A stretch of 64,000 nucleotides of DNA from NCBI RefSeq assembly GCF_964204645.1, contig NC_134028.1:16685653-16749652 (forward strand). Reading direction: 5' to 3'. The notes beneath the pieces are model-generated. The model was given only the letters and a program-made list of their open reading frames with translations. It did no database searches and was not told where the DNA came from. Source of the stretch: Tubulanus polymorphus. Its lineage: Eukaryota > Animalia > Nemertea. The position numbers were made by a program, and so were the translations under genes. Positions 13,881 through 44,809 of the stretch are shown in pieces (positions within the stretch are counted from its first letter, which is position 1; each line of letters starts with the position of its first letter).

Positions 13881-14190
13881 TCTTGTCACCTGAGACAGTA
13901 TTTTAATGTCCATCCAAATGAATTACGAGGCCTTAAGTTCCTAATGGTTTTCAGTTTTTCATTGAAATTTGTGAGAGATCTCAAACATCTGATTTTTCGA
14001 TCAGTCAATTGTCCAAAGTCAACCAATAGTCAACAGTCCTCATTTGTAGGGTTTTTTAAGGAAAATATTGACAAATTTTGACTTAAAATCTTAACTATTA
14101 CCACAGTAAATAGGATTCATCTCCTCGTATGGAATTGGGGTCACCAGATTGTCTCTGCTCACATCTTGTCCACCATAATCTCCTGGGTCG

Positions 14191-15038
14191 CATCGAGTCT
14201 GAAATTCTCGGATCACCAGAAAAAAATCTCAATAAATCTCAGCCTGACATTTCAGTCTACCTGTTGTCACAGCGTCCAACGACTTTTAGGGATGCAAGGG
14301 AGGCAGCCAGAATGGCTGAGTACATTGAACAATGAAAGGCGTTGTCGTCTCCCAAGATATTGCAAATTGGGACCGTACCGGATAAATTTTTATGTGACGT
14401 CATGGGTGAGCTACAGGACATGTTCCGCCAAATTATGGACACTCAACAGTTGGCCCGTACTCAACAGAACGACAGAGGGACTAATTATAGTGAAAGCCGC
14501 CCGTCACGAAGGTCACAGTTGTCACGCACAGGGGGCACATTTCAGCGCGATAATCGCCGTCCCCCATATTCTTTGTAGGGATCAGTTTCATTCACAGTGT
14601 TGGGCGTGAACCCCAACATCGAGTCTGAAATTCTCGGATCACCAGAAAAAAATCTCAATAAATCTCAGCCTGACATTTCAGTCTACCTGTTGTCACAGCG
14701 TCCAACGACTTTTAGGGATGCAAGGGAGGCAGCCAGAATGGCTGAGTACATTGAACAACGAAAGGCGTTGTCGTCTCCCAAGATATTGCAAATTGGGACC
14801 GTACCGGATAAATTTTTATTTGACGTCATGGGTGAGCTACAGGACATGTTCCGCCAAATTATGGACACTCAACAGTTGGCCCGTACTCAACAGAACGACA
14901 GAGGGACTAATTATAGTGAAAGCCGCCCGTCACGAAGGTCACATGTCACGCACAGGGGGCACATTTCAGCGCGATAATCGCCGTACCCCATATTCTTTGT
15001 AGGGATCAGTTTCATTCACAGTGTTGGGCGTGAACCCC
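14191..15038 (+). repeat. 426-bp near-identical tandem duplication of a gag-like remnant
   Basis: 14191-14616 is repeated at 14617-15038 with few substitutions and a 4-bp indel. PDISVYLLSQRPTTFRDAREAARMAE resembles Gypsy gag (weak). Confidence 0.85.
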
Positions 15039-16212
15039 AAGGGGTTAACCAAACATTTAACCAGGGGAACGGCCAGAGACCTCATCCTATGGACTGACAA
15101 GGGTGAGGTCCCGCAATGAATGGTCAACTGAGCCCTCGCCAGATTCGGCAATAAGGAGTGATTTTTGGTCGGATGACACATATTTGGGGTATCATAGATA
15201 TGACAACGACAGTCCAGCAATTGCCAATTACATTTTTGATTATAATGATATTTTTGAGGACAATTAGGGATGATATATTTGACATGTCATTTGATCAAGG
15301 CAACATGCTAGCTGATTCAGTTGACGATTATTTTGAACCTGAGGAAAATTGTACTTGATGACGACGAGTCTTTAGATTTAGATAGGTTTGTCGGCTATCA
15401 TACTCCTCCATGGGGTGCCGATGACGTTTATGACATTCAAGACATTCAAGATCGTAACTTTGGGAACAGCTGGAGGGACAATTCCAAGTTGTTCCAAGGT
15501 GAAAGTTTTCATATGGATCGGGGATCCAATTTTGAGGACAACTGGAGGGACAATTCCCAGTTGTTGGCTACTTACGAGCAGAGGAGTTAATGGTTCGACA
15601 GAAGATGAGATAGGAAGTCTCATTTAGATTGTCACGAAGGCGCTCTTGACCAGTATAGGTACCCAGCAACCTACGCATCAACAATACAACGTGATCTTGT
15701 GTCATCACATTCAGGTAGTAGTAATAATTCACAATGGTTGAAAAGTTATACTAGAGAAATTAATCAGAATATATGTAATTCAATGTTTGAAAATTGTGTT
15801 TTATTTTAAACTGGAAAAGGTGGCAGCACTTTTCAGATTTATTTTTTTACCATTTAAACCAACTCGAGAACTCACAGAAGACCTGAGACCAGCGATTGTG
15901 ATGAGTGGTGGCATGTTTAAGTGTGAAGGGTGACTCAATTTGCCCCTGGGAGTGACATGGCTGGTTCCGATTTTCTGAGCGGCTAGTCGAGGAGGGTGAC
16001 TCGGTTTAACTACTCCTAAGGTATCCACTCAGGTTTTAATGACAACAAACAGAACAAATACTCGTCGCGGGATGGCCACAGAAAGAACCTCACCTCCCAG
16101 AACATTCTTAGTTGAAAAATCATTTAAAAGCTAATCCACAGGATTCATTTTTAAAGAATAAGATCATTTTTATACTTTATTACTTGCAACATGTTTTAGG
16201 CATTTCTTGACA

Positions 16213-16495
16213 CTATGCAACGTCTAAAATTACACAAGTAAAAGCAACTCGAGATTCTATGATTTTTCCTGCCAGCACCGTTTTTGTATAGTTCAAAGGC
16301 TGCATCAAAATCATAAATGACTTAGCGACACCTATGGTACGTTCTACATGCACTCTCTTGCTGGCGGTTTTTCTATCTTTAATAACAGATTGGACTGACA
16401 TTCGATTCTTTTTTCTAAAGAACGATGGAATATTAATAAAAACATTTTGAGGCACAAAGAGGTCGTCAACATTAAACACTTTATCCACCATTATA
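16213..16495 (-). pseudogene. C-terminal fragment of a DDE_Tnp_4 (Harbinger/ISL2EU) transposase
   Basis: MVDKVFNVDDLF...INIPSFF...DRKTASKRVHVERTIGVAKSFMIL matches the xDKGF...RxHVERxIG signature; convergent with the YqaJ remnant. Confidence 0.75.
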
Positions 16496-16621
16496 CTGAT
16501 GTTGACGTGATTTATTATGAAAAGATATATTTGATTTACTAACATATTTATCACAATATTTGCAAAACATTTCATTTTTATCACCATTTTCACTTGTATT
16601 TTTATCCTCCATTTATATAGA

Positions 16622-17516
16622 AACAAGGCAATTCGATACTACGTATGTATGTCCCCCGCGATAGCCAGTAGGGAATGAATGACCCCCGAAGACACTAATC
16701 TTTGGTATAGAAAAATGATGAGTGTATCCAGGAATAACCATACTATGAAATATCATTTTCCTGCTATGAATGGTTATTTAAGAATTGAGTTTACAGGGTT
16801 TTAGGCAAAAGACGTCTACCAACCTTGACCTTTGACCCTAGAACTCCAAAATCACTAATGCACAACCTCTCCCCAGGGGTAATCATACTATGAAATAGCA
16901 TTGTTCTGTTATCAATGGTTCTTCTTGGATCGTGTTTACAAGGTTTCATATGAATGAAATCTAGTGACCTTGACCTTTCCCCCAAAATCAATAGGGCACA
17001 TCCTCTCCCTAGGGGTAATCGTGCGATGTAATATCATTGTATTGCTATCAACAGTTCTTTCTGAATCACATTCACGACACAAGGTTTCACATGAATGACC
17101 TGAAGTGACCTTGACGTTTGATCCTTGGAGCCCAGAATCAATAGGGCACATCCTCTCCCTGTGGGTAATCATACTACGTAATATCATGGTCGTGCTATCA
17201 ACGGTTCTTCTTGAGTGATGTTCACAAGGTTTCACATGAATGACCTGTAGTGACCTTGAACTTTGGTACTTGGACCCCAAAATCAATAGGGCATATCCTC
17301 TCCCTAGGGCTAATCATACTACATAATATCATGGTCCTGCTATCGACGGTTCTTCTTGAATCACATTCACAAGGTTTAACATGAATGACCTGTAGTGACC
17401 TTGACCTTTGATGTAATATCTTAGTCCTGCGATCAACGGTTCCTCTTGAATCGCGTTCACAAGCTCATGCTGACGGAGGCGGATACCAAGTCCCACGCTC
17501 GCGTGGGGGACAAAAA
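16622..17516 (+). mobile_element. non-autonomous Helentron-like element, family B, with ~140-bp internal tandem repeats
   Basis: Starts AACAAG; subterminal GTCCCCCGCG; internal units with TGACCTTGACCTTT...CCCCAAAATCAATAGGG; 3' hairpin GTCCCACGC-TC-GCGTGGGGGAC followed by AAAAA. Confidence 0.7.
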
Positions 17517-19066
17517 TCACCCAATATATTTCACCCAACATTTTTTACCCAAAAAGCTCCCTACCTCATACCCCTAGTATGAAACCTCCAATTCTCCTTT
17601 ACTCTAATTGGATTTGTAAATTATGAGATTTATAATTAATTTTGCTAGAATCAACATAAAATTTTTATTCTTTTAATTTATCTTGCATTTATTTCATATA
17701 TTTTTTTATCTTATTCAAAATCTATATCATGATGTCATTTTATATCCTTACCTTTATATATGAAAAAGAAATCACCAGAACATAATTCTTCAATATCTTC
17801 ACTGGATAATCGATGAAATCTATCTGGTTAATATGTTCAAATTTAATAAACATATTACCTTTCAATCCTTCATATTCTAATTGTAATACAATTGATCACC
17901 ATATTTATCTACAATTGTTTCAATATCTTTTATTAAATAAATACTTCTTACATAATGTTAATTCTGTTAACTTTTAAATTTATAATCTACAGATTTAACA
18001 CACGCAGTAACTTAAAATGTATCTAGAAATAATGTGTTATTTTCACAGTTTTGTTTACACTCCATTTAAATATGTAAATTTTTTATTAAAATTGGTTCTA
18101 GAAATATATCATACTTCATATATGAATATAATAAAAATATTACATATATAAAATCATTAGAGTAATAAGCTATTTTCACATCTCCGCAGTAAAGAAAATG
18201 CTGCAATCTATGCGGCGCATCAACATGGAATTTTCAGCACAGTACAAGAAAAATGAAAAATCCTCATCAATTTTCTTTCTTCTTTTGTAGTTTTCTTAAT
18301 GAAGAATTTCATATGTTCTACCATTAATATATAAAAAGTCTACTTGTAAATTCGACAGCAAATGTTGTACAAATCCGCTCATGTTGTGCTTACGTTAGTA
18401 CATCAGGATGACGTCACATTACATCGCAAAAATCCCCAAAAAGCGACATAAAATTGCCAATTAACCTAATCTAAGCTTTATCAATAGCCTTCAAACACAG
18501 TCACCTGTTAGCTGCAATCAAAACTGCAGAATTTGAAGTCCTTAGCCCATGAATCATTTCATACTCTGAGGAGTTATCGGTCAACACAAATTCAACACTC
18601 CGTTGTTACTACTGTCCAAATACATATAGAACCGAGTTCCGTGAAGTCTACTGTTCTACCAAGATTATTAAGGGGAGAGGCAAAATTGTCCATACGTGCT
18701 ATATGTATTGAACACTTGCTAGCTCTGATACCTTTCTCCTTTAGTATCCGCATTCTCCGGATTCTGCTCCGTCGAAAACCTAATGGAAATTTTCAAAACT
18801 CTAATGGATAAGTAAATAGATAATTCTGAGAGGCAATTTTTTCATGACAATTTTATTTTACTATTTACATCATATCTCATCATAGAAATGACAACTCAAT
18901 TAAATCGATTTAGAATAAATGTACAGTAGAGTACGCCGTCGGATAGGTTAAAAGGTCAAGTGCCCTCTAAGTAGAATTTTGTGTATTACCTATTATGTAA
19001 CTGTGAAATGTGTATAAATGATGTGTGTTACTATTTTGATTTTGGTAAACCATTACTGAGAAGTAA

Positions 19067-19780
19067 TGCTAGGTTCACATACACACACACACACACGATT
19101 TTTCGTCGAGGAATCGAGCAACTCACTATCGAGGACAACTATTTTGAAATGAGTCATGTGTGTGAACGAAAAAGTTGCTCGATTTTCCTCGACACAACTC
19201 TAGTCTCGACTAGTTGAGAGAAATAGAACATGTTCTATTTCTCTCAACTCAGTCGAGGAGTTGAGAGAAATCTAACCAATCAACATGCAGTATATTCGCG
19301 CGCATTTTAATAGTCTTCCTTTCTGGTAAGAGAGGGCAATATATTACTACGATTTCTACAATAAAAGAATAAACCTTTTATAAAATCTCATCAATCTCAT
19401 GTCTATCAGATAATTGATATGAGACTCGTGAATTCAAACGAATTCAAGACTCATCAAATTTCTGGAGTCAGACGGTTCCAGGATCCCCTAACACCAGGCA
19501 TGATATATCCATGGATGCTGAATAGGCCAAAGTCGTTTTATCACAATAATTGTTATCTTTTAAATTTCTGCTTAAATTGCGATTTCTTGTTCATCCTTCA
19601 TGCCTTCTACACTGCTGCATCTACGCCCAGCTGGAGTTGTGTGAATTATGCTGTGTGTGTGAACACATATTTTGACACAACTTTGTTTATTTTTCTAACC
19701 GGGTCAGAAGTTGAGAAATCGAGAAGTTGAGACAACTTCGCAATTTCTCTTCAAAAAGTCGTGTGTGTGTGAACCCAGCA
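19067..19780. mobile_element. PIF/Harbinger-like MITE
   Basis: TIRs TGCTAGGTTCACA(CA)nCGA / TCG(TG)nTGAACCCAGCA, flanked by TAA and TTA. Confidence 0.75.
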
Positions 19781-20852
19781 TTAGACTATTTTCACCAGCT
19801 TGCCATACACAGCATGTGCACATTTGCAAGGAAAAACCCACGATCGCTGACGTCATTGATGTACATAGGATAGAGTCAAGTACCGTCATAACTTCAGTCA
19901 CAAAATATTTGCGGCATAACGGAATGATGATCCTGAGAGTTGACATAGTATTCACGGTATGACTATTGACTAACATTTTCCCACAGCTTATAAAGATGCA
20001 TATCATATGTAAAAAAAGTTTAAATAAATAATACAAATGGTCTTTTGAAAATATTCGAGAACTTTTCTTACGTAGATCACTGTGCAATAGGGGAGGGGTC
20101 AGTGTAATTGCGTTCTATCTTGCGCACTGTGTACGAATTGTATATCGTTTCATTGCCCTCTTGCGATCAATTTATACAGGACAAATTTAAGGAAGTAAAA
20201 TATTTGATTGTAGCAAAACAATGATACCGCGGCCACGGCCAAGCCACGGCCATCAGCTGTTAACCTTATCAGAGAAAAGACTTGACTCTAATTGGTTCCT
20301 TAAAATGTGATGTACTTCGTCCTATGCTCTCAGGATATTACTTTCCGAGATTTATCATCCAAATGATACTTATTAGTACATTGTGACAACCTATGATCGG
20401 CCTGGTAGGAAAAATATCACTAATTAGACCACATAAAAAAACCTGTTTCTCTGGCCCGATAACCCTATATTTCAAATAACTTTTTTTCAGAATAAAATAA
20501 AATTGCCTACCAACTATCTTCATAATTTTGGGTGATTTAATTTTTTTTTAAATTATATGTGGCTGTCTGACTACCAAACTCGTCGTTCTCGTAAAAATCT
20601 TTTTCTTCTAACCAAATCATAATATAATTACTTAGATCAACATCATGAAAATATTTCATCACATTAGATTCAACAGTTTGATCCTGGAAATGGTACAGCC
20701 ATCCTCAGACAACTTGGCTAATCAGAACTCATCTACGGTAGGGGGCTGATCACGACTGAAAGGCCTTCGTTCCGCGATTAGCTGCCAGAAAACTTTCTGT
20801 CACAAACTGAACATTTGATTTCAGCATTTTGTAAGAATAATTTTGACATTCA

Positions 20853-20961
20853 GGGTTCAGTTCCACAGTTCTGAGTTAAGATTTGACTATGAGCTAACTC
20901 ATTGAAAATGAACTAATTTTAACTCAGAGTTAACTCAGACTCACAACTGTGGAACTGGGCC
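20853..20961. mobile_element. short palindromic MITE
   Basis: CAGTTCCACAGTT ... AACTGTGGAACTG inverted arms. Confidence 0.5.
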
Positions 20962-21554
20962 AGCAACTTGGAACTTTAAGCAACTGTTTCTAAACTCAGG
21001 GATAAATATGTGTAATTGATTCTTTGCAATCAAATAAGCCCTCCAAAATGATTGAGAATGTTAGTCAGAAACTTGGAGATGATAACAAGGCCTATAGCCC
21101 ACTTTTGACCATTGTTTTAACTAGTCTGGCCAACATGACTATGCAGTATAAAATGCCAATCCAGTGTGTACACAGCAATTAAAGCAATTAATGTGATCAT
21201 CAAACAACACCATGCATTCACTCTGTCTCACTACAGTTCATGATCCGGCCTACATTGAGGGAATGTTTGAAAAAAGGTCCTTTAGAAATAGATAAAACCT
21301 CTTCATGACCCCTTTAAACGCAAACGAAACGAGTCAAGTTTCTTCTAGGCTGTACCGTACCCATTTTTGGTGATTGCCCCGCCCGAGAAACAGGATTTTT
21401 TGTGTGGCCTCAGCCCCAAATTGAGAAAACTAAACTAAACCACTCAATCATGATACATCCTTCATTCGGGCAAACCAAGAGCAACGGGAATTTCAAGGAA
21501 GCAAAAGAACATCTGTATACGTAATGGTGCTCTTATAGCAGTCTACACAATACA

Positions 21555-22411
21555 AACAAGAGCCCCAAAGGGCACTATGGCCAGCCTGTCAGCTTTTCAT
21601 AAAATGGCATATGATGCATTCTGTGGGTTAAATTTGTCCAAATACACTCATAACTCAATCGTGCTTTCATAAGTAGCACAGACAGTGACTGGAGCTGGCA
21701 GGAACAAATACCTCAGATAAATCTTTTTTCCCTTAGTGATTTGAATGCGGAATAGAATTGAATTTTCTGAAATTTGCTCAATGAAGCAAAACTGAATTGG
21801 ATTTGCTGTTTACCTTGTTCAATACAGTAAAATTGGATTGGATATATTTCAATAAAATTGATTGATTGTTTGATTGAATTTGCAGTTTGAGTTCATGGCT
21901 AATTAGCTTATCAAGTTCATCCATCCGATTTGAGAAAAAGCTATTTTTCCCGGACTTTGCACGAATGTCAATGATATTTTCTGAAGTGCAAATAAAAATA
22001 TTCCTCCCAAAAACCAAATCAACTAAAGATTTCACAGAAATCGGTATTGAAATACAATTTTAGAACTTAAAATGAAACCCGGAAGTAAATGGGTAGACGA
22101 TACCGCGGGTTCACGTGAACACCTGCCGATGTCTGCGGCTAAGCCAATCATAGAGGAGTCTTTGCATTCTGATTGGCTTTTTAAAAAAGATATTTTTGCA
22201 TTCAGATTTTCGCGAAAAAGCTCATAAATTTTAACGAGGCCCTCTTTCAAAATTCAGCTTCATAGGGGATGGAGAATGGATAATGCTTTAATGAATGATA
22301 TGTATGAATATATGCTTAGTTGCAGTCAAAAAGCCTTTACTCTGGAAACCACGTCGTTCAAATTCGCTCCATTTGTGTAGTAATAGGCTCAGCCTACGGC
22401 TGGCCTATAAA
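21555..22411 (+). mobile_element. non-autonomous Helentron-like element, family C
   Basis: AACAAG start, subterminal GGCCAGCC, 3' hairpin TAGGCTCAGCC-TAC-GGCTGGCCTA. Second copy at 35539-36368. Confidence 0.7.
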
Positions 22412-22833
22412 TGATCAGTACCGGTACTGTTTTCCAACAGTAGCAATGAAGCTATTGAAATGAAGACAATCTGGTTACCCCAATTCATTGTCTGTGAAAT
22501 GTGATTGCATACTCAGACCTCGTTGAAGAAAAACTCAAAGAATAAAACTTTAAACATAGAAGCCTTTGAAAAAGATGGAACATCTAACAAAATTATTCAT
22601 TTGTGTAAATATGTACTTCATGTAAATAGAAAACTGTTCTAGGAGAACAAGGTAATTCCCTTTATATGTTTAAGCATCCTGCACTAGATTGGTCAAATTT
22701 TGGATACATGGTTGAAGTAAGAAAATAGTTTGATATTCACTGCATTTAATTATATTATACTATTTGATCAATACACTTCAGCATCATTAAAATCATGATC
22801 AAATTATGCGAGACTAACTGTAGGCCCATTGAA

Positions 22834-22981
22834 TCAGTTTTCTAACACATCACTTTTAGTAATAACTAACATCTGAAGAGATGGAACATTACGATTAAAA
22901 TCCCAGTAAAAATCTTCTATTGGGATATGTGTACATTTCAAGTTCCACTTATGTAGCAGCTGAGTAATATTCCTGTCTGCA
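22834..22981 (-). CDS. METTL23: METTL23-like methyltransferase, last coding exon (5)
   Basis: tttcag| acceptor, phase 2. (S)ADRNITQLLHKWNLKCTHIPIEDF...* matches the METTL23 C-terminus (RSADW..LLxKWxxKCxHIP). ATTAAA on the minus strand at 22750-22745. Confidence 0.85.
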
Positions 22982-23021
22982 CTGAAATCAAAATACAAAA
23001 TAATCATTCTAAAAATACAAT

Positions 23022-23954
23022 TTACAAAAAGAACTTACGTCTACTTGTTTCCATTTCATGCCGTTTATGAACCCATTCATATTCACCAAATTTAGAGTCA
23101 AAAGTGCCTTTCTGAAGGGAACGCAATTTCAGAGTAAATCTCGGGCCTAATTCTTTAAGTCCAACTTTCTGTGAATTACGGAATTCATACCGATGTTGAC
23201 GAAAAAATATAAAATCCCGTTGATTGTGAAATGTAACTACCCTACGACCTTCAAACTGAGGACTATGGGGAAATAAAGATGCCATTAACCGCCCTATTCT
23301 ATGACCGAGATGAGTATTGAAATTGTTGAGAATGACTTCTGGATGATGACATGACATACTACCCATCTTTTTTAAGTCACCTACCAATTTTACATTACTA
23401 ACTTTGAAATGGGCAGTTGGGCCATCAGGTAAGTGTGAAATTACTAAACCATTAGGTATACCACGATTTTGATTAACAACGAGTAAATCAGTATATTCAC
23501 ATCCTTTACACTGTTCAATGATCTTCTTGAGAGCTAAACCACGGCGATATTTAACAACAGAGTTCGGAATAATTCTCTTCAGTTCTTTACAAAAGCAATC
23601 AGTTCGACCACGGGATGATCGATCTGATGCAACAATAAGAATTTTAGGAGTTGTTTCGCGGTTGAAATATGGGGCTAATTCATCATTTGCTTCGTCAACT
23701 GCAACCTCCTCATCTTCAGGATTAACAAATGTTTCATCATAAACTCGACAATTTTCAATCGTTTTTGGAACCTGCTTAGGGGGTGCATTATCACCTAATG
23801 CTTTTCTTTCTTCTTTTTGTAGTTTTTTCTGCTTCTTCTTCTGTTTTCTTTGTTCACGTTTCATTTCAAGATAAGCTGCAGTTCTACGCTGCTTGTTTTT
23901 TATCTGAGAAATATTTGTCTTCGGAACACACCCTTCAACTGCTTTATCAGCCAT
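23022..23954 (-). CDS. RPF1: Ribosome production factor 1 (Brix domain), intronless, nested in METTL23 intron 4
   Basis: Intact 310-aa ORF with [100 protein letters not shown]. Strong start context gaaaATGG. Confidence 0.95.
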
Positions 23955-23973
23955 TTTCAACAAAGAATTTTAC

Positions 23974-24058
23974 CTTCGCTCTTGGTAAGTTGTCCAAAAT
24001 TCAGCCGATGGATTTTCTTCTAAAATATAGCTTACAGTCACAAGAATATCTTCGAAAT
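23974..24058 (-). CDS. METTL23: METTL23-like methyltransferase, coding exon 4
   Basis: tttcag| ... |gtaaaa; 85 nt; (D)FEDILVTVSYILEENPSAEFWTTYQER. Phases match exons 3 and 5. Confidence 0.88.
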
Positions 24059-24080
24059 CTGAAAATTATAAGAAGAAACA

Positions 24081-25180
24081 CATGGGCAAAGTGTGGTTTA
24101 CCTTGAAAGTTAGAGGTTGTTTGGGGTAAGGGCATTGCTTGAAAAATCTTTTTTAATTCGTGACTTCAAAGTTCTTCAAGTTTAAATATTGTATTTTATC
24201 TTTCTTTATGGATTATTTTGTAGTCAAATAAGACCAAAGATATACATTTGTTTACGGTCCACATCCAAAATCTTATATTTTCAAAGAAATATTTTTCATT
24301 AATACGAAAAAATATTCAAATAAAATTCATATGATGTCACATATCAGAGGGTGGCTGAATGTATGGCCGTGGAAGCTAACATACTGGTGCAATAAGAAAT
24401 CAGCGTATTAGATCGTTTTAAATCCTGGAATTTACCACTAAAATATTCAGACCTCGACCTATACCTATAGTTTGCTGCTTAGTATTTTCAGGTCATAAGA
24501 AATTACAATTTATTACAAATTCTATCAAACAGAAAACACAGCGCTCTTCTGCTGATGAAATGTCAAACGCGCCAGCAAGCAGCATTACAGTATCACTATA
24601 GAAGTGTCTACTGTACGCGCGTGTGTTTGTGTGTGCAACTGTCTAATCTAATGATTTCCACGCGCACGTGGAGGCCTTGTGTAAGTGAATGTTCGCTTAC
24701 ACTTCAATGCAAATGAAATCAATCACCGGGTATTAAAATGAAACAATACCTGTGGCGGATAATAATTACATTCTCACCAGCAATGAGCATTTGAAATTCG
24801 CACGTTTACGGCACCTAGTCCAATGAAACGTTCGCCATTCTATGGCTTTCCCATAATTATTTTAGTAGCGCCGGAATTCCCCGTATATCCCAAAAAAGCC
24901 AATCACATTTGCTCGTAGAGACAACGCCACCCCATCGAGGTCATTGCGATATGTTATACGTGAGAGCTTAGAATTTTCCCGCCAAAAACAGTTTTTCGTA
25001 GAATTTTAACTGAGTTGACCATGTCATCGACGGAGGTTCGCCATGTCTTCAATCGCATCGTTTATACATCGTTTATGCCGAGAACCAATGAAAAAAATGC
25101 TCACATTAAAAAACGTACCACGATTTTACATGAATTGGCTCAATGTCAACTTCATATCGCTCATTAAGGTAAACCAAAAA
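24081..25180. repeat. interspersed repeat; a second, interrupted copy lies at 30502-30778 + 33444-34326
   Basis: Long colinear similarity between the copies. This copy has the empty TAA site (24321-24323) for the insertion seen in the other. Confidence 0.85.
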
Positions 25181-25722
25181 CACAAACATCCACTACCAGG
25201 TTTTAGACTTTTTGGCTGATTTGATGTTTCATAGATTTTCTGGAACATATAATTTTGTCTTTGCCGGAATTGGGATGGTCAGCAGACACGCATATTTAAA
25301 GTTTCCGGTAAGTTTGTGATGCAAATCCAAACGCACCAGGTTTTTTGTTGACAAGTTCATGAGTTTAAGCAAAAAAAAATAAAAAATACATGTGTCCTTT
25401 GACCAGTCACACACAGTGTTAACGGCAACCATCAACCCATATATCACTGAGAAATCTCAATCCATTTGAGCTAGGGTCAGGAATTGTTAAATACAAAATG
25501 GCTTCTAATGACCGTGAGTAATTTCCATTACTACTGCCATCGATTAGAGAACATTCATGGTCCTCACAAATGATTGGAGAACCTGCATTGAAACTGTCTG
25601 CTCTCGCACAATCGCCATTGAACCCATGACATAGGTCAATAACCATGCAGTACATTGGGTACAAGCTTCACATCAATGATTCAACACGAGTGTTTTAAAG
25701 CTGTTCACAGACTGAACCTTAA

Positions 25723-26014
25723 CCCTTTCAGTGCGTTTACACCGCAATACGGTGTAAAATCAGTGATAGATTTTGCTAGTACACCGCAATGCGGTGTAGT
25801 AATTAGTAATTATCTCTCTTGAAAAATGACAGCACCTGTCAAACATAGTGAAATAATAGTAACTAAAGATACACCTGGCTGCAGTGTAGATGCATTATAG
25901 TGGTGATGCATTAATAGTGGTATTCCCGTTATTCAACACACTAGGGTGAAATTTTTTGAAATTTTCAAATTATCTCCATCACTATAGGGTATTAATTAGT
26001 CAGCATTGAAAGGG
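25723..26014. mobile_element. piggyBac-like MITE
   Basis: TTAA|CCCTTTCAGTGC ... GCATTGAAAGGG|TTAA. Confidence 0.85.
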
Positions 26015-27713
26015 TTAAGGCCGACTGCTAGCTGTACCCTGAGGGCCTAAAGCTAGTCTAACGATCGACCAAGTGGAACAGGAAAACAATGTTTACCAGC
26101 GGAAAAACGAAAGTTACACAAGAATAATTTTGGACTTAATTAATTTTGATCCTGTGAGACAATGACAACACCTAAAACTTTAGCATAAACTATTCGGGAC
26201 ATACAAAATCAGAAGCTGCTATATAAGTTTTTCAAATTTAAAGGCCGACTTCAAGTATAAAAGGCCCATCATCTGTCAGACATGGCAGTATCTCTGAACC
26301 CATGGAGCAGTCAAGAGCTCCAGAGTTGAAACTGGAATTTCCCTAATATCTCTGTCAGTTAACCAATTTGGACCCTCCTTTTTGTCAGGGATATGTGTAA
26401 ACATGTAATATAGTCATATCTATGGCTTAAAATTTAGTTTAAGCCCTCCTTCATGCATAGATTAGCAATTTACTTAGTACATTCTTCAAATTTTCAAATC
26501 TTTGAATGACAAGCTGGGAGGAGTTATTCACCTCACCACAGAGAGCACAGTGACCTGTAGTCATAAACCTATATAAACAAAACAGTTGCAGCTCTCTAGT
26601 GCGTAATTTTGGGGGTTAAAAAACTTTTGACCTGAAAGTTATATCAAACTGAAAATTTATATATCATCTTAACTCCTCATCAGTAACAATGTGTGAAAAT
26701 TTCATCAAAATCGGACAAAAATTGAATAAATTGTAAATACAGATTTTATGTTCAACTCCATTATTACTGGAGGAATTCTTATCAAAAAACATCTACAAAA
26801 TCAGCGAATTCTAATTAAGAAGATTACTATGACCAAAATGATATCAAACATATACGAAAAAAGTTTTTTTTTATGTGTCACTGTGATACTGTGTGATACT
26901 GGTGTGAGCCAGATGTGTTCCAGTAAACACTATAAACAAACTACCGCTTGCTAGTTGCTAGTGGGATGTGGCCTGCACTGCAAATCTCAAGTACCAACCG
27001 GTGGGTTTTTGGACCTCCATTTGAGTCGGCCTTTAAGGGCAGTACATATTAAACCAGGCCAGCCGGTTACTGTTGAAATCAAGCTCATCAACTGAATGTG
27101 ACTTTCAATAGTTTCATTCATGATAGGATATCTATGTGCATCATAATAGGATGCATGTCTGTGTGCATGCGGTAAAAACACTAATCTGCTCCGTGGGAAG
27201 CGTTATCTATTACTACACGTGATTGATACATAAATGGTTAACGGTTAAGGCGTTATTTCTGACAATGCTTCGACTAGTGTCTTGCAATAAGTATAACAAG
27301 AAACGAAATTCTTAGTATGGACTTTCCTAAATTTACATGAGTGTATGTTTAATCAGCATCACAATTAAACATTGGTACTCTTTAGATCGAAAATAAGGAC
27401 GGAAAATATCAAGAAAAAAATGTAATTTCTCAAATTATGAATGGAAACGCATACCTATTTTCGGCATGATGATGTACCCCCTTGAATCGAAAAGTTTTCA
27501 TAAAAATCTGTCTATTGATGCGATCTCCATCACACACAACTCCATGATGATTCATCAAGAATATACATGGTAGTGGGTTTTCCCCACTGACTCAAATAGA
27601 CACTCCACGCTCACAGTGTGACGATATCATTTATTTCTTACACTATGTACGAAAAATGAAGAAATCCCTCACTTCGAATTTAAAATTATACGATCAAATT
27701 TATTATAATGAAA

Positions 27714-27755
27714 CCAGAACGTTTCGGCTGTTGACTAACAGCCATCATCAGGTGG
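27714..27755 (-). ncRNA. minimal type I hammerhead ribozyme motif (Penelope-type)
   Basis: Minus strand reads CCAC-CTGATGA-T-GGCTGTT-AGTC-AACAGCC-GAAA-CGTTC-TGG: core boxes, perfect 7-bp stem II, palindromic AACGTT stem III. Confidence 0.65.
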
Positions 27756-27756
27756 A

Positions 27757-28150
27757 ATGACCAGAAAAACAAGTCTCGCTTAGTTCTTCTCGACTTAAGT
27801 GCTGATTTCTACACTGTTGACCACTTCAAATTATTACCCAGATTGGAAAAGATGGGTATTACTGATGTCGCTCTAAGACGGCTTTCATCTTATTTATGTG
27901 ACAGGTATCAGAAAGTGTGCTTAAATGGTTCTTTTTCCGAGCCAGTAAAGCTAAATTATGGTGTACCACAGGGCTCCGTTTTAGCTCCTTTGCTTTTCTG
28001 TGCTTATATTGCTCCAGTTGGTAACATTTTTTAAGCATCTTACAACTGATTATCATCTATATGCAGATGATAGTCAGTAGTACATTCCTTTTAACTGAAA
28101 AAAAGCTCTCTTAAGAAAATGTATGTATATATGAGAGATATCGAAAAAAT
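27757..28150 (+). mobile_element. LINE (L2/CR1-type) reverse transcriptase fragment
   Basis: LVLLDLSA..TVDH..LL..L...GVPQGSVLAPLLF..Y...YHLYADDSQ, with stops. Confidence 0.8.
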
Positions 28151-28575
28151 TATGTCAAGCAGTGATACAAAATACAGAACCCTAATACCATCGTCAAGCG
28201 ACTCTCAGCAATTTTTGATTGATGATAGTCCCACAATCTAAGCATAATATCATGCAATTCGTTGGTTGATAGGAGGGTCTTTTTTAATGGACATACGGGT
28301 GGTGTATAATTTAAATCAATATAGTAACTACAAAGATCGAACAAGGACAAGGGGCCTAAAAGCGGCTGGGGCAGAATTTACTGTTAGTTTTTTTAACGAT
28401 AGGTTGTGTATCACGGACAGGTCAGACGGGGTAGAGAGGTGAGGGGTTGGTTCCAAGAACTCTAAACATTTGAAGCAATTAGATTCATTTCCCGGCCAAT
28501 TACAATGACTGATTTTTGTTAGCAAAAATATCAGGGTATGTGCCGAGCTAGTATATATATCTTCTCCGAGCCTAC

Positions 28576-28813
28576 CTTTAGTATCATAGAAGCAATCAGA
28601 CCCAAGTATGATATCAACTGCGCCAATGTTAAGTATATCTGGATGAAATATTCCCCAAGTAATAGACAGCACAGGAATATCCAATATATTGTTCAGTTCA
28701 CAGCTATCTTGAGCATTTTTCCGCGCATATGAAAATGCTTTACCATCTGACAACTTAAGTAAACCACCACACCTCAATGCAACTATACCAGGAAGACTAC
28801 TTCCACATCCAAG
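28576..28813 (-). CDS. METTL23: METTL23-like methyltransferase, coding exon 3
   Basis: ttttag| ... |gtagg; 238 nt; LGCGSSLPGIVA (SAM motif I) ... ITWG ... DIILGSDCFYD. Confidence 0.9.
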
Positions 28814-28894
28814 CTAAAATGAAAAATCATTTTATAATCAAGCATGCATGTTTCATCAATTGACTGAAAGTGATTAAATTACATTTTATCTCAC

Positions 28895-28999
28895 CTCGAC
28901 AATGCTTTTGTTATGTACTTTTTGTCTGTTAAACCAGAGGAATTGCCCTAAAAGTGGTGCAGATGGCCAAACGTAAGAGCCGTACTGTTGATCGGTCAA
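28895..28999 (-). CDS. METTL23: METTL23-like methyltransferase, coding exon 2
   Basis: ttccag| ... |gtgaga; 105 nt, phase 0/0; QYGSYVWPSAPLLGQFLW...KSIVE (Methyltransf_16 W-motif). Confidence 0.9.
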
Positions 29000-31984
29000 C
29001 TGGAAATAAAAATTTAGTAACCGTATTTTCCGGCGATTAAGCTGACTCAGCCAATAAACGGAGAGCAGTTTTTTAGCCTAAAATACATGGATTTCTTAAT
29101 GCATCGCCCAATAAGCAGAGGCCGTTCATCAGGTTTTAATCCACTGATTTGTCAATTAGTTTGTCTTAATTGACGGTGTATGAGGCTGACAATGCAGCCT
29201 GCCGATGGGCGAGAGTGGTGTGTATACTATCATTGCCGAGTCACTGCTATATATAGACTCATTCAGGTGATTTCTAACACACAGTGCCATTTATTGTAAC
29301 CTGCATTGGCAAACAGGTGGCTGACTGCTGGCGCGCATATATACTAATGTATTAGCGCTGCAGTCAGGCATTTAGCCAGGAGGGCGTCATTTGGACGCCC
29401 TCAACCGGATGTTTTCAGGGAAAATATCAGATCAAGGAATTTGCAACACAGCTGATCTGACTATGTTATTTGAGACTTAAATTTCAATGTAAAAACGAAA
29501 TAAATATCAATCAGTTCCCGCCGTCGTTGTTTTTCTTTTCTGTGTGCATCCATGTTTGTTTATTTGAGCCTCCGCATTCAGGAGAGTGGATCGATTTTTA
29601 TGTACGACACCACTGGTTCATTGAACGTCTATTCACTTCAACATGATCAGTGCATAAAGCTCACATTGTTCGACACGTGTGGCTGGCATGAATAAGATAA
29701 CAGATTATTTTAAGGGCTCTCGGGCAGGGCAGCCCAGCGGAGTAGTTAGCCATCAACCTACAGAACCTGTGATTTTGGAGGATGATGGGCCTGAATCCGA
29801 GGTGGAGGATCCAGATCCCCCGGTCCCTGAAAACATAGTGGGAAATCACTGGCTATTTATACTCTAGTGCAGCGCGCACTCATGGGGTGTATATTCTGAG
29901 TGATATGCAGCGGTGTAGTGTGTGTTTATACAATTATTGAAACTCGCCCCCGCCACACATGAATAGATTAATCTTTATCATTTTCCGATTAAAAACTATC
30001 GAGAAACACCTCAAATCGGACCAGCACAAATTGTCCATTCCAAGGGCTGACAATTTGCAGGCGGATTTGGCAGTCATCCAAAGCATGGAATGAAAAAAGA
30101 GTGCAGGCATTCTCGGTGGCTCTGAAAAAGTGCCTACTGGGTTATCAGGGATAAAATAGCGAATCGTAAATATGCTTCCCTGGTTAAATTTCTGCAGGAT
30201 TTACAGATGCCAGCTGCTTTATATTTGAACAGTAGCTGCAGAGCTAACTACATAAGTCCCGATATCTTTAACCAATTAACCCTTTCAGTGCTATGGATGT
30301 GCTATGCACGCTTCTATGGCGTCACTTTGTGCGCGGCTGATGTGCAGAGCACACGTATTAGCTATTCTTTTCAAAATGACTGCAGCACAATGCCGATTGT
30401 ATTATTTTGAATTGCAAGCAATTTCCAAAAAAAATCTTTCAAAAATTGTTTTGCAAATCATCAAAATCTTGTAGATTGCTCATGGGTGTAAATAAATTGC
30501 CCATGGGCAAAGTGTGGTTTACCTTGAAAGCTAGAGGTTGTTTGGAGTAAGGGCATTGCTTGATAAATCTTTTTTAATTCGTGACTTCAAAGTTCCACAT
30601 GTTTATATTGTATTTTATCTTTCTTAAAGAATTATTTTGTAGTCAAATAAGACCAAAGATATACATTTGGTTACGGTCCACGTCCAAAAAATTGTAGGGT
30701 ACAGGTAGGCGTGGCAGGGAAATCATTTTATATTTTCAAAAAAATATGTTTCACAAAATGAAAAAAATATTCAAATAAGGCCATCCCAAAATAATTGTCT
30801 GTTTGCCGTAACACCGACTCAACTTTTCAGGACTAGTCGGTAGGAAGAGAAAAAATTTTTTTGCTAAATTTTTGGGCCAAAAAACAAATTTATCACCTTT
30901 TTACATGGAAACAATATCGCAAAAATCATCTACGTTGTGCACAGGAAATTTGTCTTATAGCGTAGATTTCGAGAATTATTCTAAAATTATAACTTCGTCC
31001 AGAGCGTCATCTGTGTTAAAAATGAAACAGTACATTGAATATGTGCGCAGTTTTACGTTAACAGCTTTGCAGCTTATTGGAAAACTTAAATTAGGCCACA
31101 TTGACAATGCATGTTTTCACACGATGCACACTTGAATTCAAACATATATAATACGTAGCTCATACGTAGGCAGTGGGTCGGTCAGCCGTTTATATCAAAG
31201 ATAAAATTTATTTCAATGAATCCCAGAAAAAAGTTTTCACTCGGTACCTTTGAAGTCGGGTCGGTCGGGGTTATGGCAAACCAGGGAAGTGTGATGAGAT
31301 GGAATACGGACGCTTTTAATTGCCGGATGTAGGCTATTCAATTCAGCCCATACATCAAAGGTTACCGCAACAGCAGTAAGCTACGCTTATCGAGTGTGTG
31401 TTACCAGCTGAACACTAGTCAACATCAACTTTGATTCAGTCGCAGAACAACCCGCAATAGTTTTAGCCCGATAAATGTTCTGCGATCGATACTACGCATG
31501 CGCACTGCAGTTCATTGAACAACGTGGAAGTGGCTGTGTATACACATATTTTTCTTTAGAAAATGGTTGAAATTCAACAATTTCTCGTAAAATTTGTCCA
31601 AAAAGGTATGTATTTTTATTCTTCTATATCTCCGAAACCCGGTATCGGAACATTAAGTATTTATATTGTGATTAAAGTCTGCTTTTATGTGTTAAACATA
31701 TGTTTTTGCCAGTTCGTTCCGATTCCGGGTTTAGCGTTATTTGGGCCTTGAAGATGTCAAATATTTCGGCCCAGACTCGCGCAGCTTTCGTTTCTGACGT
31801 CATGTTGCTATGTTATGACACAAACATATACACGAAGTATGATCTTTAAAATGTGTATTTACTACATAATAATGTTACTTAATAACGCTTACATTAGGCC
31901 TACAAATTATTGTCCCCCATATAAACCAAGTTGCCTAAATAGCATCAGCAATCTCATTTAATTAACCTTTTCTTGTTTTTAGTC

Positions 31985-32191
31985 ATGGATCTTTGTCGAT
32001 TGTGTGGAAAAAATGCGAAACCTCCGGATCGTCGTCCTATCGATAAAAATAATTTCAAAAGCCATGTGAAGGAGTTGTTCAACATTGATTTTGATGATGA
32101 TACTGAACAGTACCCGATATATATCTGTAATATGTGTTGTGTCAAATTACAAAAATGGCGTAAGAACAAAAACGTTAAATATTTTTGTTAA
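31985..32191 (+). pseudogene. truncated ORF with a RAG1-N-terminal/ZAD-like CxxC...CxxC zinc domain
   Basis: MDLCRLCGK...VKELFNIDFDDDTEQYPIYICNMCCVKLQKW; a splice acceptor lies just before the ATG. Confidence 0.6.
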
Positions 32192-32797
32192 GAATTTTTG
32201 TAAACCACTGTTAATTCCAAGTCTGGACGGCGACGTATTTGTAGTCAAAATTTTATCGATCGATTTTCCATAATGTACTGCTGCCATTCCATTTGAACTG
32301 AATTTAAATACTCGATGGTTAATCACTTCAGTCATAGCCTTTTCCAAATATATAGTGTTCCTGCGAAAATAATAATAATGATTATTATTTTAACATGTAC
32401 TTATCTGGATTTTTTATATCATGTTTATATATTTATTTCTGTATTCGTTTATTATTTTATAACCTAAAAGGATTGTATTGATTATAAAAATAAATGTAAA
32501 AAATACCTGTATGTGTGTTTTCTCGTGTTCAGATCGCAGTCTCTGGTCAGCTGAGCCTGAGAAGTACCTATATGAAAAAGAAAAGGAAAGAATAAAGTGC
32601 CTGCAATTAGGTGGAAACTATTCCGATATTTCATTGATTCAAAAGGAATAACACTCACTAGAATCGGCCGAATTAGTTGATCCTGATCCAGAGGATTCCC
32701 GTAATATTTCCGTATCGATCTGAACCAATTCGTCACTATCAAAGAATAGATCGTCAAAATCGTCATCAATTATAATTTCGTTGACAACCGTTGCCAT
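32147..32797 (-). CDS. three-exon hypothetical gene inside the 7-bp-TSD element (probably 3'-truncated)
   Basis: Exons 32797-32659, 32567-32507 and 32360-32147 have canonical GT-AG sites and compatible phases, giving about 137 aa (MATVVNEIIIDDDFDDLFFDSDE...). Confidence 0.55.
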
Positions 32798-32908
32798 TTT
32801 AATACAGCGGAAAGAACCGATATCACGATTGATAAAACACTATATCCGTCTGAAGCGATGTAGAGAGAATCCCACAATGATAACGAAAAAGTCCAAAAAT
32901 GTTAGTAG

Positions 32909-32955
32909 TTTATTCAACGTTTCGTCTATGTCCTAATAGTCATCTTCAGAAATAA
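32909..32955 (-). ncRNA. minimal hammerhead ribozyme-like motif (Penelope-type fragment)
   Basis: Minus strand reads TTATTT-CTGAAGA-T-GACTAT-TAGGAC-ATAGAC-GAAA-CGTTG-AATAA. Stem II has one mismatch and the cleavage triplet is non-canonical. Confidence 0.45.
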
Positions 32956-34539
32956 TGAATACTACAGAAATTATGAGAGATATATACAATCCAGAGACAA
33001 AGAGACTAATTCAAGTAATCAGAGATGATACTAACTAAAGGAAAATTAACGTAGAAACAGTTACACGCTAAAACAGATTAAAGAGAAGCAGTTAAGAGAC
33101 AAACTAGGGGGCACTTAAATTTAAGACAATTGTGAATACAAGTTGATCGACTAAAATGGATGAGGGGAAATCAGGTGTTGAGTTTAACCAGTATACAGAG
33201 GAATTTTTATATAAGTTTATTATGGGATGAAAAACCGATATTCGGAAACAACTGAATTATTACGGAGATTCCCGATCTCGCTGGTTATCGCTTATTGGCG
33301 CGTTACGTAACAAAGCGCTCGCCGATGAACCGTTATCGGCTTTAGGGCAATTACAACGCACATTGACAAGAGCTGCACAATAGCGTCCGTATTCCATCTC
33401 ATCACACTTCCCTGGGCAAACAGACCATTATTATGGGATGGCCTAAAATTCATATGATGTCACATATCAGAGGGTGGCTGAATATTGGGTTATGGAAACC
33501 TCTTCCAATGTTGGCTGCGGAAGTTAAAATACCAGTACAGAAGAAATCGGTTATTAGATCGTTTTAAATCCTTGAATTTACGACTACAATATTCAGAGCT
33601 CGACCTATACTTTTAGTTTGCTGCTTAATATATGTCACAAGAAATTACAATTTATTACAAATTCTATCAAACAGAAAACACAGCGCTCATCTTCTGCTAC
33701 GATTATTCAGCCTATTTTCATGTCAAACGCGCACGCGTTACAGCATCAGCTTGAGAAGTGTACTGTACGAGCTTGTGTGTGTGTCGTGTAGCACTCTGCG
33801 CGCACAAGTGGAGGCCTCGGGTAAGTGAGTGTTCGCTTACACTTCAATGTCAATCAAACCAATCACCGGGGATTAAAATGAAACAATACCTATGGGGGAT
33901 GTGTGAAATAATTACATTCTCACCAGCAATGAGCATTTAAAATTTGCACGTATACGGCACCTAGTCCAATGAAACGTACGCCATTCTATGGCTTTCCCAT
34001 AATTATTTTAGTAGCGCCAGAATTCCCAGTATATCACAAAAACAGCCAATCCCATTCGCTTGTAGAGACGACGCCCCCCAATCGAGGTCATCGCAATTTT
34101 ATATGCGAGAGCTAAGAATTTTCCCGCCAAAAACCGTTTTTTGCAGAATTTTAACTCAGTTGACCATGTACATCGACGGAGGTTCACCATGTCTTCAATC
34201 GCATCGATTATATGTCGTTTAAGTCGAGAACCAATGAAACAAATGCTCACATAAAAAAACGTACCGTGATTTTGCATGAATTGGCTCAATGCCAACCTCA
34301 TATCGCTGACAAAGGTAAACCAAAAATGGAAATAATAACCAAAAATTGGAAATTCTTTTTCTTATTCTGGCATCCGTTCCATTATATCACCCTACATACC
34401 GTACGGTGCTGCCATCTCTCCATAATCATTTTATTGGTTTTTATTTCCGATTTTTTGTGATTATTTTCGGAAAATGGTGGTTTTTAGTATGGTCAGCCAT
34501 ATGTATGAAAATGTGTTTCTAATGCTCAATAATCTAACA

Positions 34540-35210
34540 ATTTCAATGTTCAACGCCCCCTGGTGACCTCATACAAAAACCAACCACAATCATAGAACAC
34601 GTTATAAGCTACAACTTTCTAATTCATTGTTGTAACAAAAAATGCTTAGGCATCAATATAATGTTGAAACACTTTTCCCCACCTACGAATGAGTACTAAT
34701 GACACCAAGATGGCCACCAATTGCGTCATAATTGGCTGATCAAAGATACCTGTCTCAGGTATAAAACATTTCTTTCCAAAGAATACCCATCTGCAAATGC
34801 AATGAGAAGTGGCAAACCAGTAGGAAGCTACAGGACTCAGAATTCAGGCCAAAATTAACATTTTTGGGCACTTAAAAGGGCCTAGGACGACCATCTTGAG
34901 TCTGATCCATCCAATTTTTGTTATGCTGATGGGTCCTGGGGGAATTCAAATGTATTCGAAGAATCAAGGTAATTGATCAAGGAGTCTTCAAAATTTCCCT
35001 CAAAAGGTTCAAAAACGTGTAAAAAGTGCTGATTTTGGCAAACAACAATGGCTGCCAGTAGGCCATCTTGATTCTGACAGGGCCAGTTTTTGGGCTGAAG
35101 ATGTGTCTAGGGTAGATACATGTATAAGCTAAATATGATGGCATTACCTTGAAGCGCCTTCAAAACTTCTTCACGTCTTCAAATAACTGGATTCCTTCTA
35201 CGGACGGATG
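34540..35210 (+). mobile_element. partial copy of Helentron-like family A
   Basis: Colinear with about 43660-44330. Confidence 0.7.
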
Positions 35211-35538
35211 AAAGTTTCTAACAAAAGTTATCGACTCCCCAAGCAAGTTATCAATCCGTGTGATAGCAATATGGGCTTGCAAGCATGCAAGCCCATGAGA
35301 AGGATAATTCAATTCACTGTATTATTATCATATAATTCGCTGTTTCAGATATTTGAACCAAGGAACCAGACATTACACGGGACTTAAACAGATGGGGAAC
35401 TATAGAAATTGAAAATCTCCTTGGTCATTACGGGATAGCAAAACTTGATGAAAACGGAATTATGGTCCCTGCCATCGTTGACCCTGAGGCATGCAAGGGG
35501 GAGTTCATCACTTTCAAACGTTTGATCCACTAGGTTTT

Positions 35539-37449: not shown

Positions 37450-37985
37450 AGGCTGGCTTATGTCGACAGGCAACGCGACGCCTACCGACGCAACTGAGAG
37501 CAACCGCGATTGGAGCACAGCTTATGTTGACTGTGCTCCGATTCGCAGCAACTGAGGCCGACTAGCGGGATATGAAATCATCCCAGTTGCTTCCCTGCTT
37601 ATGTCAGTTACGATAACTGGCAACTGCAATGACTCAGATGGTCACATGATAAGCGTATTGAGAATAAATTTGATTTATTTTGAATTATTGGGGAATATAT
37701 TTCTATTAGAAAAGCTATTTCTTTAAGATCTTTATCTTTCTGTTTTGAATACAATGTGCTAGCGACATAACATAAAGATGGCCCCTCACACCATAATTCT
37801 ACCAATTTCATTTCTAGATCTTCGGTCCAGTCATCTGCCATGCTGAAGGTTTGGTTTATGTTTTGAACTACTTGATTTAAAGTTTATGACTAATTACGAA
37901 TGACGCTAACTAGCAGTCATAATTTGTACTAAGTATATTCGGTCTCAGATTGGCTGGAACCCCTGTGCTCAGTTCAACGAAGTCA
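37450..37985. mobile_element. truncated Harbinger derivative carrying a MADF-domain remnant
   Basis: TAA|AGGCTGGCTTATGTCGAC left TIR. Minus-strand MADDWTEDLEMKLVELWCEGPSL..YS (MADF-like). Confidence 0.7.
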
Positions 37986-41738: not shown

Positions 41739-41810
41739 ATTAGAGACTGTAACAGAACATGCTTCTCCAGAATTTTTATCTTTAAATGTAAAACTTCTGC
41801 AATCACTCAT
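41739..41810 (-). CDS. METTL23: METTL23-like methyltransferase, probable first coding exon
   Basis: MSDCRSFTFKDKNSGEACSVTVSN|gtaagt, phase 0 as exon 2 requires. Acceptor ttttag at 41860 with an in-frame upstream stop. Fits the 'F-x-F...V-x-I' N-terminus of the family; 12.7-kb intron. Confidence 0.65.
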
Positions 41811-43122
41811 GGAATATGATAAGCAGCATTCCAACTGCTAATCCAAAATCTTCTATATCCTAAAAATAAGAAAATCAAGCATTGGCCCGAGTTCCGTGCA
41901 TATGACTTTACGCACTTAAGTGGTTTTTCGTCCACATTCTCATCAAAACTCTTGAAATATAATCAAACCTTTAGAAGATTACTAGCACATATTCACCTTC
42001 TCTTATTCTTCAAACCTGTAACCTAATTCGGTAGAAAGATGGTCCCAATCGCTTGAGTTTAACGGGAGTCTATTGCATTCAGCTAGATGGACCCATGTAC
42101 GAAAAATGAACGCAATTTCCTGTCGGGACTTATGTTAAGTGTTTACACGAGGCAGGGGCCGCTTACCCCGCCGTTCTTATACAACACCGCACTACTGTCT
42201 CTAGCCTACTTCATGTACTAACTCTGCAGAGACATTAATCTACTGGTCCTCTCCCTGTCAGTGTAAAGCACTTACTGGCAATTTCTATGAACTATTTTTG
42301 AATTCATCAGCGCACGAGCACCTGGCTTCGAGAGTGATACAATTTATCAATTACCAAGACTCTTAAGGGAAACCTGTCTATATTTTCCTCAAAAAACATG
42401 AATGATAACACTTAGATGACTATTGATTGCATCGCACAAACAAATTCATCAAATTTAGCAACATATATCAATTTCCTCGATAATTTTCACTTGAAACGCA
42501 TCGATTTTAAAATGAATATCGACGACTCATCATCAAGTTGAAAGATAAGACTGTTGTGCATCGTTTGGCAGTTTGTGGGATTAAATGCCTGAAACGGACT
42601 AGATCTCTTCACTTTAATGCGTGCACTCGCCTGTATGTTACGTCTTATCATTTGCCATGCTGGACTATTAAGGTCAATTTTTCAGTGGAAAACCGCAATT
42701 TCGATGTGAAATAATCATCATAGACCAATAGTTATGGGCTCACTGGAAAGAATCAGGATATTTAACTGTATACAGCAAAGTGTTTACTCACGCTATTTTA
42801 CCGTACATCATTGCTATATATAGTATTAACTATATAAGTAACAATAAAATCATTTTATTGGGTTTAGGTTTAGGGTTCCGATGGGTTTACGGCCTATAGC
42901 ACCAGAGGGTTATGATTAGGGTCCGTTTTACCCCCAGGGATAGGATTAGGGTATGGTTAGGTGCAATAGCTAGTTAAAACATTCAATTGGTTTTCTGCGA
43001 GCTTGGTGGTCTAGTAGTACGACGCTGCGCTAGTAATTTACTGGCCCAGGCACAGGCACTTGAATATGGGCTTTGACCTCGTTGGTGTGCTTAAAATGAT
43101 AAAATTTATTATAAACTACGAT

Positions 43123-44778: not shown

Positions 44779-44809
44779 TATTTCAGGGGTCTAACTGCAG
44801 TTTGGGTTA

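Follow-up and report, generated by a model that had tools for sequence, protein, structure and literature searches.

A same-strand RPF1 gene nested in the last intron of METTL23 in the ribbon worm Tubulanus polymorphus, and its possible expression by intron retention

In the ribbon worm Tubulanus polymorphus (Nemertea), an intact RPF1 gene makes up 94% of the last intron of METTL23, an unrelated gene on the same strand. Within the window (the whole 64,000-nucleotide stretch of DNA analysed), METTL23 is read from the minus strand, with its first coding exon at 41739..41859 (ATG at 41810), exon 2 at 28895..28999, exon 3 at 28576..28813, exon 4 at 23974..24058 (85 nt) and the coding part of exon 5 at 22834..22981. 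The first four exons are connected by splice joints at 41739/28999, 28895/28813 and 28576/24058 in RNA-like sequencing runs. When all five are joined (41810-41739, 28999-28895, 28813-28576, exon 4 and exon 5), they yield exactly the 215-aa RefSeq METTL23-like isoform X2 of this species (P0134), and exon 3 shows 100% identity with the RefSeq METTL23-like proteins of T. polymorphus, a palaeonemertean. Annotated isoform X3 uses an alternative first exon that sits in the repeat-rich intron 1 and whose coding part (30897..30929, minus strand) supplies the N-terminus of protein P0121. No METTL23-like isoform X1 containing exon 3 occurs among the RefSeq matches, where isoforms X2 and X3 are both present; that the missing isoform is the RPF1 ORF is a guess. 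The METTL23 ATG at 41810 stands in a weak context (TCCATGA) and is overlapped by an upstream ORF of 8 codons. At least one non-coding exon lies further upstream, represented by 25 and 58 unplaced 5' letters on contigs of the sequencing runs X2 and X3, respectively. About 3 kb upstream of exon 1, the interval 44800-45550 reaches CpG observed/expected values of 1.4-2.0 and is a candidate site of the non-coding first exon and promoter.

The exon, intron and ORF coordinates given by the initial annotation proved exact to the base when we re-checked them. Intron 4 of METTL23 (22982..23973, minus strand) is 992 nt long and runs from GTAAAA to TTTCAG between exons 4 and 5, and RNA-like contigs cover it. 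It contains the uninterrupted, intronless RPF1 coding sequence (23022..23954, minus strand; 933 nt, 310 aa), which begins 19 nt after the donor in the strong start context AAAATGG and ends 40 nt before the acceptor. If the intron is kept, the METTL23 frame ends at a TAA (23970..23972, minus strand), which shares the RPF1 frame and lies 15 nt upstream of the RPF1 ATG. The intron 4 donor (AAG/GTAAAA) is the only one of the four METTL23 donors without a G at +5. Since the ORF takes up 933 of the 992 intron bases, RPF1 possesses neither its own acceptor nor its own poly(A) site; the 19-nt leader between donor and ATG contains no AG. For RPF1, exon 5 is 3' untranslated sequence, followed by a 3' UTR shared by both genes (22500..22833, minus strand). 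The initial annotation had assigned both messages to a shared ATTAAA at 22750-22745. This hexamer is present, as are others at 22666, 22601, 22489, 22341 and 22292, but the contigs of run X2 (to beyond 22500) and run X3 (to 22585) pass it, and no more than one of several 3' ends can lie there. Between 22585 and 22836, in or near the shared 3' UTR, both runs show 11 gap letters relative to the window, probably an indel allele. On the other side of the nested gene, high-copy repeats (24081..25180, made up of 24081-24270 and 24321-25180) start 22 nt upstream of the exon 4 acceptor; they have copies at 30502-30689 (93% identity) and 33444-34326 (81% identity), and bin depth over them in the DNA-like run X1 is 14,000-23,000, compared to about 40 for single-copy DNA. 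Misassembly does not account for the layout, since a single X1 contig covers 22500-24109 with 0 differences from the window.

The nested ORF carries a Brix domain (PF04427, E = 1.2e-30) and has full-length matches to human RPF1 (1e-130) and yeast Rpf1 (5.7e-62), with lesser matches to the best IMP4 (1.8e-44) and BRX1 (1.2e-5). Judged by alignment over its full length, the predicted product is nearer to RPF1 than to IMP4, BRX1 or SSF1, and by homology it would act on nucleolar pre-60S particles; RPF1 is described as essential in yeast (PMC3846774). Within a set of 30 named invertebrate RPF1 proteins, it retains 111 of 116 conserved columns, its five changes placing it at rank 4 of 30 (median 2), and it has a one-residue insertion and an R215H change in the otherwise invariant TRLG motif. 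Mean identity to eight relatives is 0.70, the others ranging from 0.68 to 0.74. The conserved columns and this normal identity argue, at the protein level, for purifying selection on RPF1. In a neutral simulation with 10% substitution, the RPF1 frame stayed open in 1.3% of 1000 trials, and the one RPF1 variant among the 40 of 100 variants listed is synonymous. GC3 is 0.25 in RPF1 and 0.28 in METTL23. The host gene is also intact but more divergent: with 32 of 39 conserved columns retained, METTL23 ranks 1 of 30, the most divergent of the proteins compared, and its C-terminus (22834-22900) lacks most of the loop that precedes the last strand in relatives.

Four sequencing runs cover the locus, and we compared their contigs over 22500-42499. 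None is recorded as RNA; X2 and X3, which come from two studies, were classed as RNA from the three canonical splice joints upstream, and X1 and X4 show no such joints. In X2, exons 1-4 form one contig of depth 151.5 whose end coincides exactly with the exon 4 donor. Another contig, 1050 nt long and of depth 57, spans 22954-24003 and thus runs from exon 4 through the whole of intron 4 into exon 5; that of exon 5 begins at 22983. Exon 4 has a 2-nt suffix in common with intron 4, and exon 5 has no prefix in common with it. Given assembly words of 31 letters and the 2-nt shared suffix, the X2 overlaps correspond to two paths that separate at the donor and rejoin at the acceptor, as expected for a spliced form beside a retained one. 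The same arithmetic applies to X3, where the spliced contig extends 113 letters past exon 3, equal to exon 4 (85) plus 28, and where two listed RPF1 contigs have depths of 4.3-4.7 compared to 9.04. The ratio of RPF1 to upstream-exon depth is 0.38 in X2 and 0.48-0.52 in X3, contig depth being a poor guide to level. Coverage of intron 4 is specific, since six other low-repeat intronic bins in X2 have depths of 0-4.4 compared to 57 on intron 4, and the 81-nt intron 2 of METTL23 leaves no break in the X2 contig. The joint of exons 4 and 5 is not among the 15 of 99 joints listed, and the spliced form is implied by the contig overlaps and assumed by the RefSeq proteins. No contig break occurs at the exon 4 acceptor in X2 or X3, and the sole visible entry into exon 4 is the splice from exon 3. 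Contigs of this kind show neither starts, strand, levels nor single molecules, and a short tip left by an internal start could have been pruned. A consensus donor (GAC/GTAAGT) is also present at 23038, 57 nt away from the intron 4 acceptor and 16 nt short of the RPF1 stop, but X2 has an unbroken contig across it, with no sign of its use.

These contigs bear on two proposals of the initial annotation, namely that RPF1 mRNA uses exon 4 as 5' UTR and exon 5 as 3' UTR, and that one decision to splice or retain intron 4 selects between METTL23 and RPF1. The RNA is continuous with both exons, but exon 4 would be a 5' UTR in the proper sense only if the RPF1 message began in or just before it, and exon 3 is the only entry seen. 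The proposed choice is in keeping with the data in so far as the retained form was observed as a contig and the spliced form is indicated indirectly.

No other RPF1 gene came to light. Among the best 120 of 2991 RPF1 protein matches there are no other Tubulanus proteins, the RPF1 protein cluster has one member, and X1 DNA depth at RPF1 is 42.4, compared to 33.7-39.9 for seven other listed single-copy pieces. The nested gene is thus likely to be the worm's only RPF1 copy, as judged from protein databases and read depth; an unannotated, diverged second copy may lie elsewhere in the genome.

The intron appears to be older than its content. Directly after YQER, at the intron 4 boundary, the sequence departs from the consensus in seven of 127 METTL23 homologues (mussel, shark and ray proteins and an oyster-like frame), which places this intron position as ancestral on protein comparison. 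METTL23 and RPF1 lie on different scaffolds in 17 of 17 other species with both proteins among the matches listed, including Lineus longissimus, in a comparison of scaffold lengths and some accessions only. An ancient intron, together with genes that lie apart in all 17 species, indicates that RPF1 moved in and that its locus is new and lineage-specific. RPF1 has no intron here, and Gigantopelta RPF1 isoforms part after EWIHK, which points to one intron in the mollusc gene. The retrocopy origin suggested by the initial annotation is likely, but neither of the traces looked for was found: the longest A run in the 40-nt trailer is 2, leaving no poly(A) remnant, and no 6-mer common to the RPF1 flanks marks a target-site duplication. 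Such traces are expected only in young retrocopies, according to PMC5408686. The best fit is likely an old retroposition after which the parent was lost, and RPF1 may instead have moved at the DNA level as an already intronless gene. A quick, weakly resolved RPF1 tree identified no donor. In a metagenome scan by RPF1 alignment, a METTL23 match (E<=0.01) was found in 0 of 80 kept loci (508 confirmed), mostly short contigs from distant eukaryotes and uninformative for ribbon worms. We also considered P0125, an unnamed 167-aa protein that ends in YQERR, as a retained-intron relative and rejected it as an oyster-like frame running through intron 3 in genomic-type sequence; this frame still confirms the METTL23 intron positions.

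How RPF1 would be translated from such RNA was not considered in the initial annotation, which left out both the upstream ATGs and the truncated METTL23 frame. In a full retained message, eight ATGs precede that of RPF1, three of them with a purine at -3: the METTL23 start, the overlapping 8-codon ORF and six out-of-frame ORFs of 3-17 codons. The truncated METTL23 frame itself comprises 167 codons. With these upstream ATGs and this frame ahead of it, RPF1 must be translated by leaky scanning or reinitiation unless its message is shorter. Exon 4 and the 19-nt leader together contain no ATG over 104 nt, and a stretch of this kind arises in 8% of shuffles.

We favour, with a probability of about one half, the reading in which RPF1 is made from full METTL23 transcripts that keep intron 4 and is translated by reinitiation or leaky scanning. 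Pre-mRNA from the METTL23 promoter would give rise to the 215-aa METTL23 when intron 4 is spliced, with RPF1 being discarded. When the intron is kept, the message would present the truncated METTL23 frame, its TAA and, after 15 nt, RPF1, with exon 5 serving as 3' UTR. Because the retained intron is the last one and no exon junction follows the early stop, this message should escape junction-dependent decay. Ribosomes might bypass the weak METTL23 start by way of the overlapping 8-codon upstream ORF or through leaky scanning, and then reinitiate at RPF1 after translating the 3-17-codon out-of-frame ORFs. Alternatively, they may reinitiate after the 167-codon truncated frame, although reinitiation after a long ORF is normally poor; there is no UGGGA motif near the METTL23 early stop. 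A structured or IRES-like leader is unsupported (z = -0.82), and an Rfam search over 22000-47000 returned 0 matches. Retention is favoured by the donor without G at +5, by the repeats that reach to within 22 nt of the exon 4 acceptor and by the lack of a second entry. Rather more tentatively, we propose a stricter version in which there is no dedicated RPF1 transcript at all and the donor splits one pool of transcripts, some 40-50% to RPF1 and the rest to METTL23, with RPF1 placed behind the eight ATGs and the 167-codon ORF. The loss of internal methionines from METTL23 was examined as a possible adaptation and rejected, as 28 of 119 homologues also have none (120 of the 127 proteins being usable).

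A shorter message would remove the need for unusual translation, and it is possible, if doubtful, that RPF1 transcription starts inside exon 4 or a few dozen bases before it, yielding a monocistronic message with METTL23 made separately. Exon 4 would then be a short ATG-free leader, its weak donor ignored and exon 5 used as 3' UTR, and RPF1, its ATG in a strong context, would become the first ORF of the message; contigs cannot reveal such a start. The initial annotation had seen no room for an intronic promoter. This is true of intron 4, but a start within a host coding exon has a precedent in UTP14C, which is reported to start in coding exon 3 of its host ALG11 (PMC5750009). The lack of ATGs over 104 nt is nevertheless not significant in view of the shuffles, and the upstream DNA is high-copy repeat from -22 on. 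Nine core-promoter motifs were sought near exon 4 and the only one present is a YY1-like match on the ATG itself, which is also an ordinary start context. Depth arithmetic in X2, which is weak and assumes even cover, predicts 70.7-71.9 for one pool and 73.1-74.3 with an extra internal start; the observed 70.2 leaves little space for additional input into exon 4.

It is unlikely that the shorter message arises by splicing instead, either from a non-coding first exon joined straight to exon 4 or from a spliced leader trans-spliced there, with intron 4 kept. A non-coding upstream exon does exist, exon 4 is free of ATGs and a short leader would be invisible in contigs, but the exon 3/exon 4 contig is unbroken in both X2 and X3, where a skipping form of comparable depth should break it. 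For trans-splicing, we found no literature report of nemertean spliced leaders: only a chaetognath report surfaced, PMC7986045 contains no nemertean term, and the spliced-leader lineages named in the accessible text of PMC12460157 are others. Still less probable is a secondary or decaying RPF1 retrocopy, carried passively in incompletely spliced METTL23 RNA while a working RPF1 resides elsewhere. Such a copy would account for the somewhat greater number of conserved-site changes than in most relatives and for the end branch of 0.76 (median 0.29), which was not flagged as long in the quick, weakly resolved tree, and METTL23 proteins of other animals also depart from the consensus at intron 4, so that this intron is maybe prone to retention anyway. 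Set against these points are the normal identity to RPF1 of other phyla, the 1.3% of simulations in which a neutral copy stays open, and the failure of DNA depth to reveal a near-identical second copy or of protein matches to reveal a second Tubulanus RPF1. The least probable route is readthrough of the TAA at the donor, with a METTL23(1-167)-RPF1 fusion supplying RPF1 activity. METTL23 and RPF1 share a frame with a single stop between them, but a shared frame has a one-in-three chance and RPF1 has retained an ATG of its own, whose context is strong. A UAA with A as the next base ranks among the tightest stops, which also counts against readthrough.

Same-strand nested genes and hitchhiking retrogenes are already known, and the RPF1 locus acts like a hitchhiking nested gene. 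Human nested genes mostly lie on the opposite strand from their hosts (PMC4394429), and intronic retrocopies are common (PMC5408686), according to the sources cited. Its closest likenesses are to the unc-17/cha-1 locus and to primate UTP14C/ALG11, though it lacks a defining feature of each. PMC5750009 reports UTP14C as an intronless ribosome-biogenesis gene on the host strand, for which host coding exons serve as untranslated sequence and which has the host's terminal exon in common with it. On the same account, UTP14C differs in being placed within the terminal exon's 3' UTR, after the host stop, in using the host's splice, in being testis-specific and in having kept its parent. In Tubulanus, the RPF1 ORF constitutes the intron that precedes the terminal exon and is removed by splicing, and no parent came to light. 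The unc-17/cha-1 (VAChT/ChAT) locus, as described in PMC3875643, similarly encodes two unrelated same-strand proteins, one nested in an intron, with pre-mRNA processing choosing between them. There, the nested gene occupies the first intron and is reached by splicing from a non-coding exon common to both, and the two products belong to a single pathway, whereas RPF1 sits in the last intron, after four coding exons, and has no acceptor of its own. Orphan retrogenes, as presented in PMC3548309, are likewise intronless, under strong purifying selection, without a detectable parent and relocated in particular lineages; retention of a host intron falls outside the definition given there, and parent loss for RPF1 is suggested by protein databases and read depth. 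Intronic retrocopies that use or disturb host transcription include mouse Taf9/Ak6, Mcts2/H13 and KTI12/TXNDC12, as listed in PMC5408686. Those cases differ in using 5' host exons or their own promoter and in altering the choice of host poly(A) site, and the part of that source available to us describes no ORF that fills over 90% of a last intron and is read by retention. Our literature search, which mostly lay outside subscription journals, returned no paper naming METTL23 together with RPF1 and no case of the same layout.

What stands out is the tightness of the arrangement, with an apparently sole-copy essential gene making up 933 of the 992 bases of an ancestral last intron, such that host splicing destroys the RPF1 message. 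Under any of the rival explanations, host coding exons 4 and 5 are dual-use, and some transcripts have to leave the one weak donor unused. If the one-pool version is true, an intron-retention switch in an unrelated host would dose an essential gene, by way of non-canonical initiation. If full retained METTL23 transcripts are the source, the locus would offer a naturally occurring example, in an animal, of an essential downstream cistron whose translation has to get beyond a long upstream frame, and would serve as a compact system for testing how intron retention, escape from decay and reinitiation are coupled. For annotators, the locus is a warning that what is labelled a "retained intron" can turn out to be an entire essential gene.

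Within METTL23 intron 1, a multi-copy element at 31600-32660 (X1 contig depth about 1,300-1,500 compared to 40) shows canonical joints in X2 on opposite strands, at 31603/31981 (GT..AG) and 32565/32657 (CT..AC), which may stem from other copies. On the minus strand, a reading frame of acidic composition begins near 32795. An 870-nt repeat occurs in two copies of 81% identity at 21570-22400 and 35539-36371, the former just past the METTL23/RPF1 3' UTR. Further out, a 24-nt tandem array of 63 copies at 252-1741 has open frames of repeated MINCLTVE, and 42-nt tandem arrays at 56851-57297 have an open frame on the minus strand. Broken DNA-transposon frames are found at 47622-49222 (HTH_psq and a weak DDE_1 match) and 16213-16587 (DDE_Tnp_4), and retroelement fragments at 59596-63427 on the minus strand include reverse transcriptase (RVT_1), Pao peptidase A17 and a weak integrase match.
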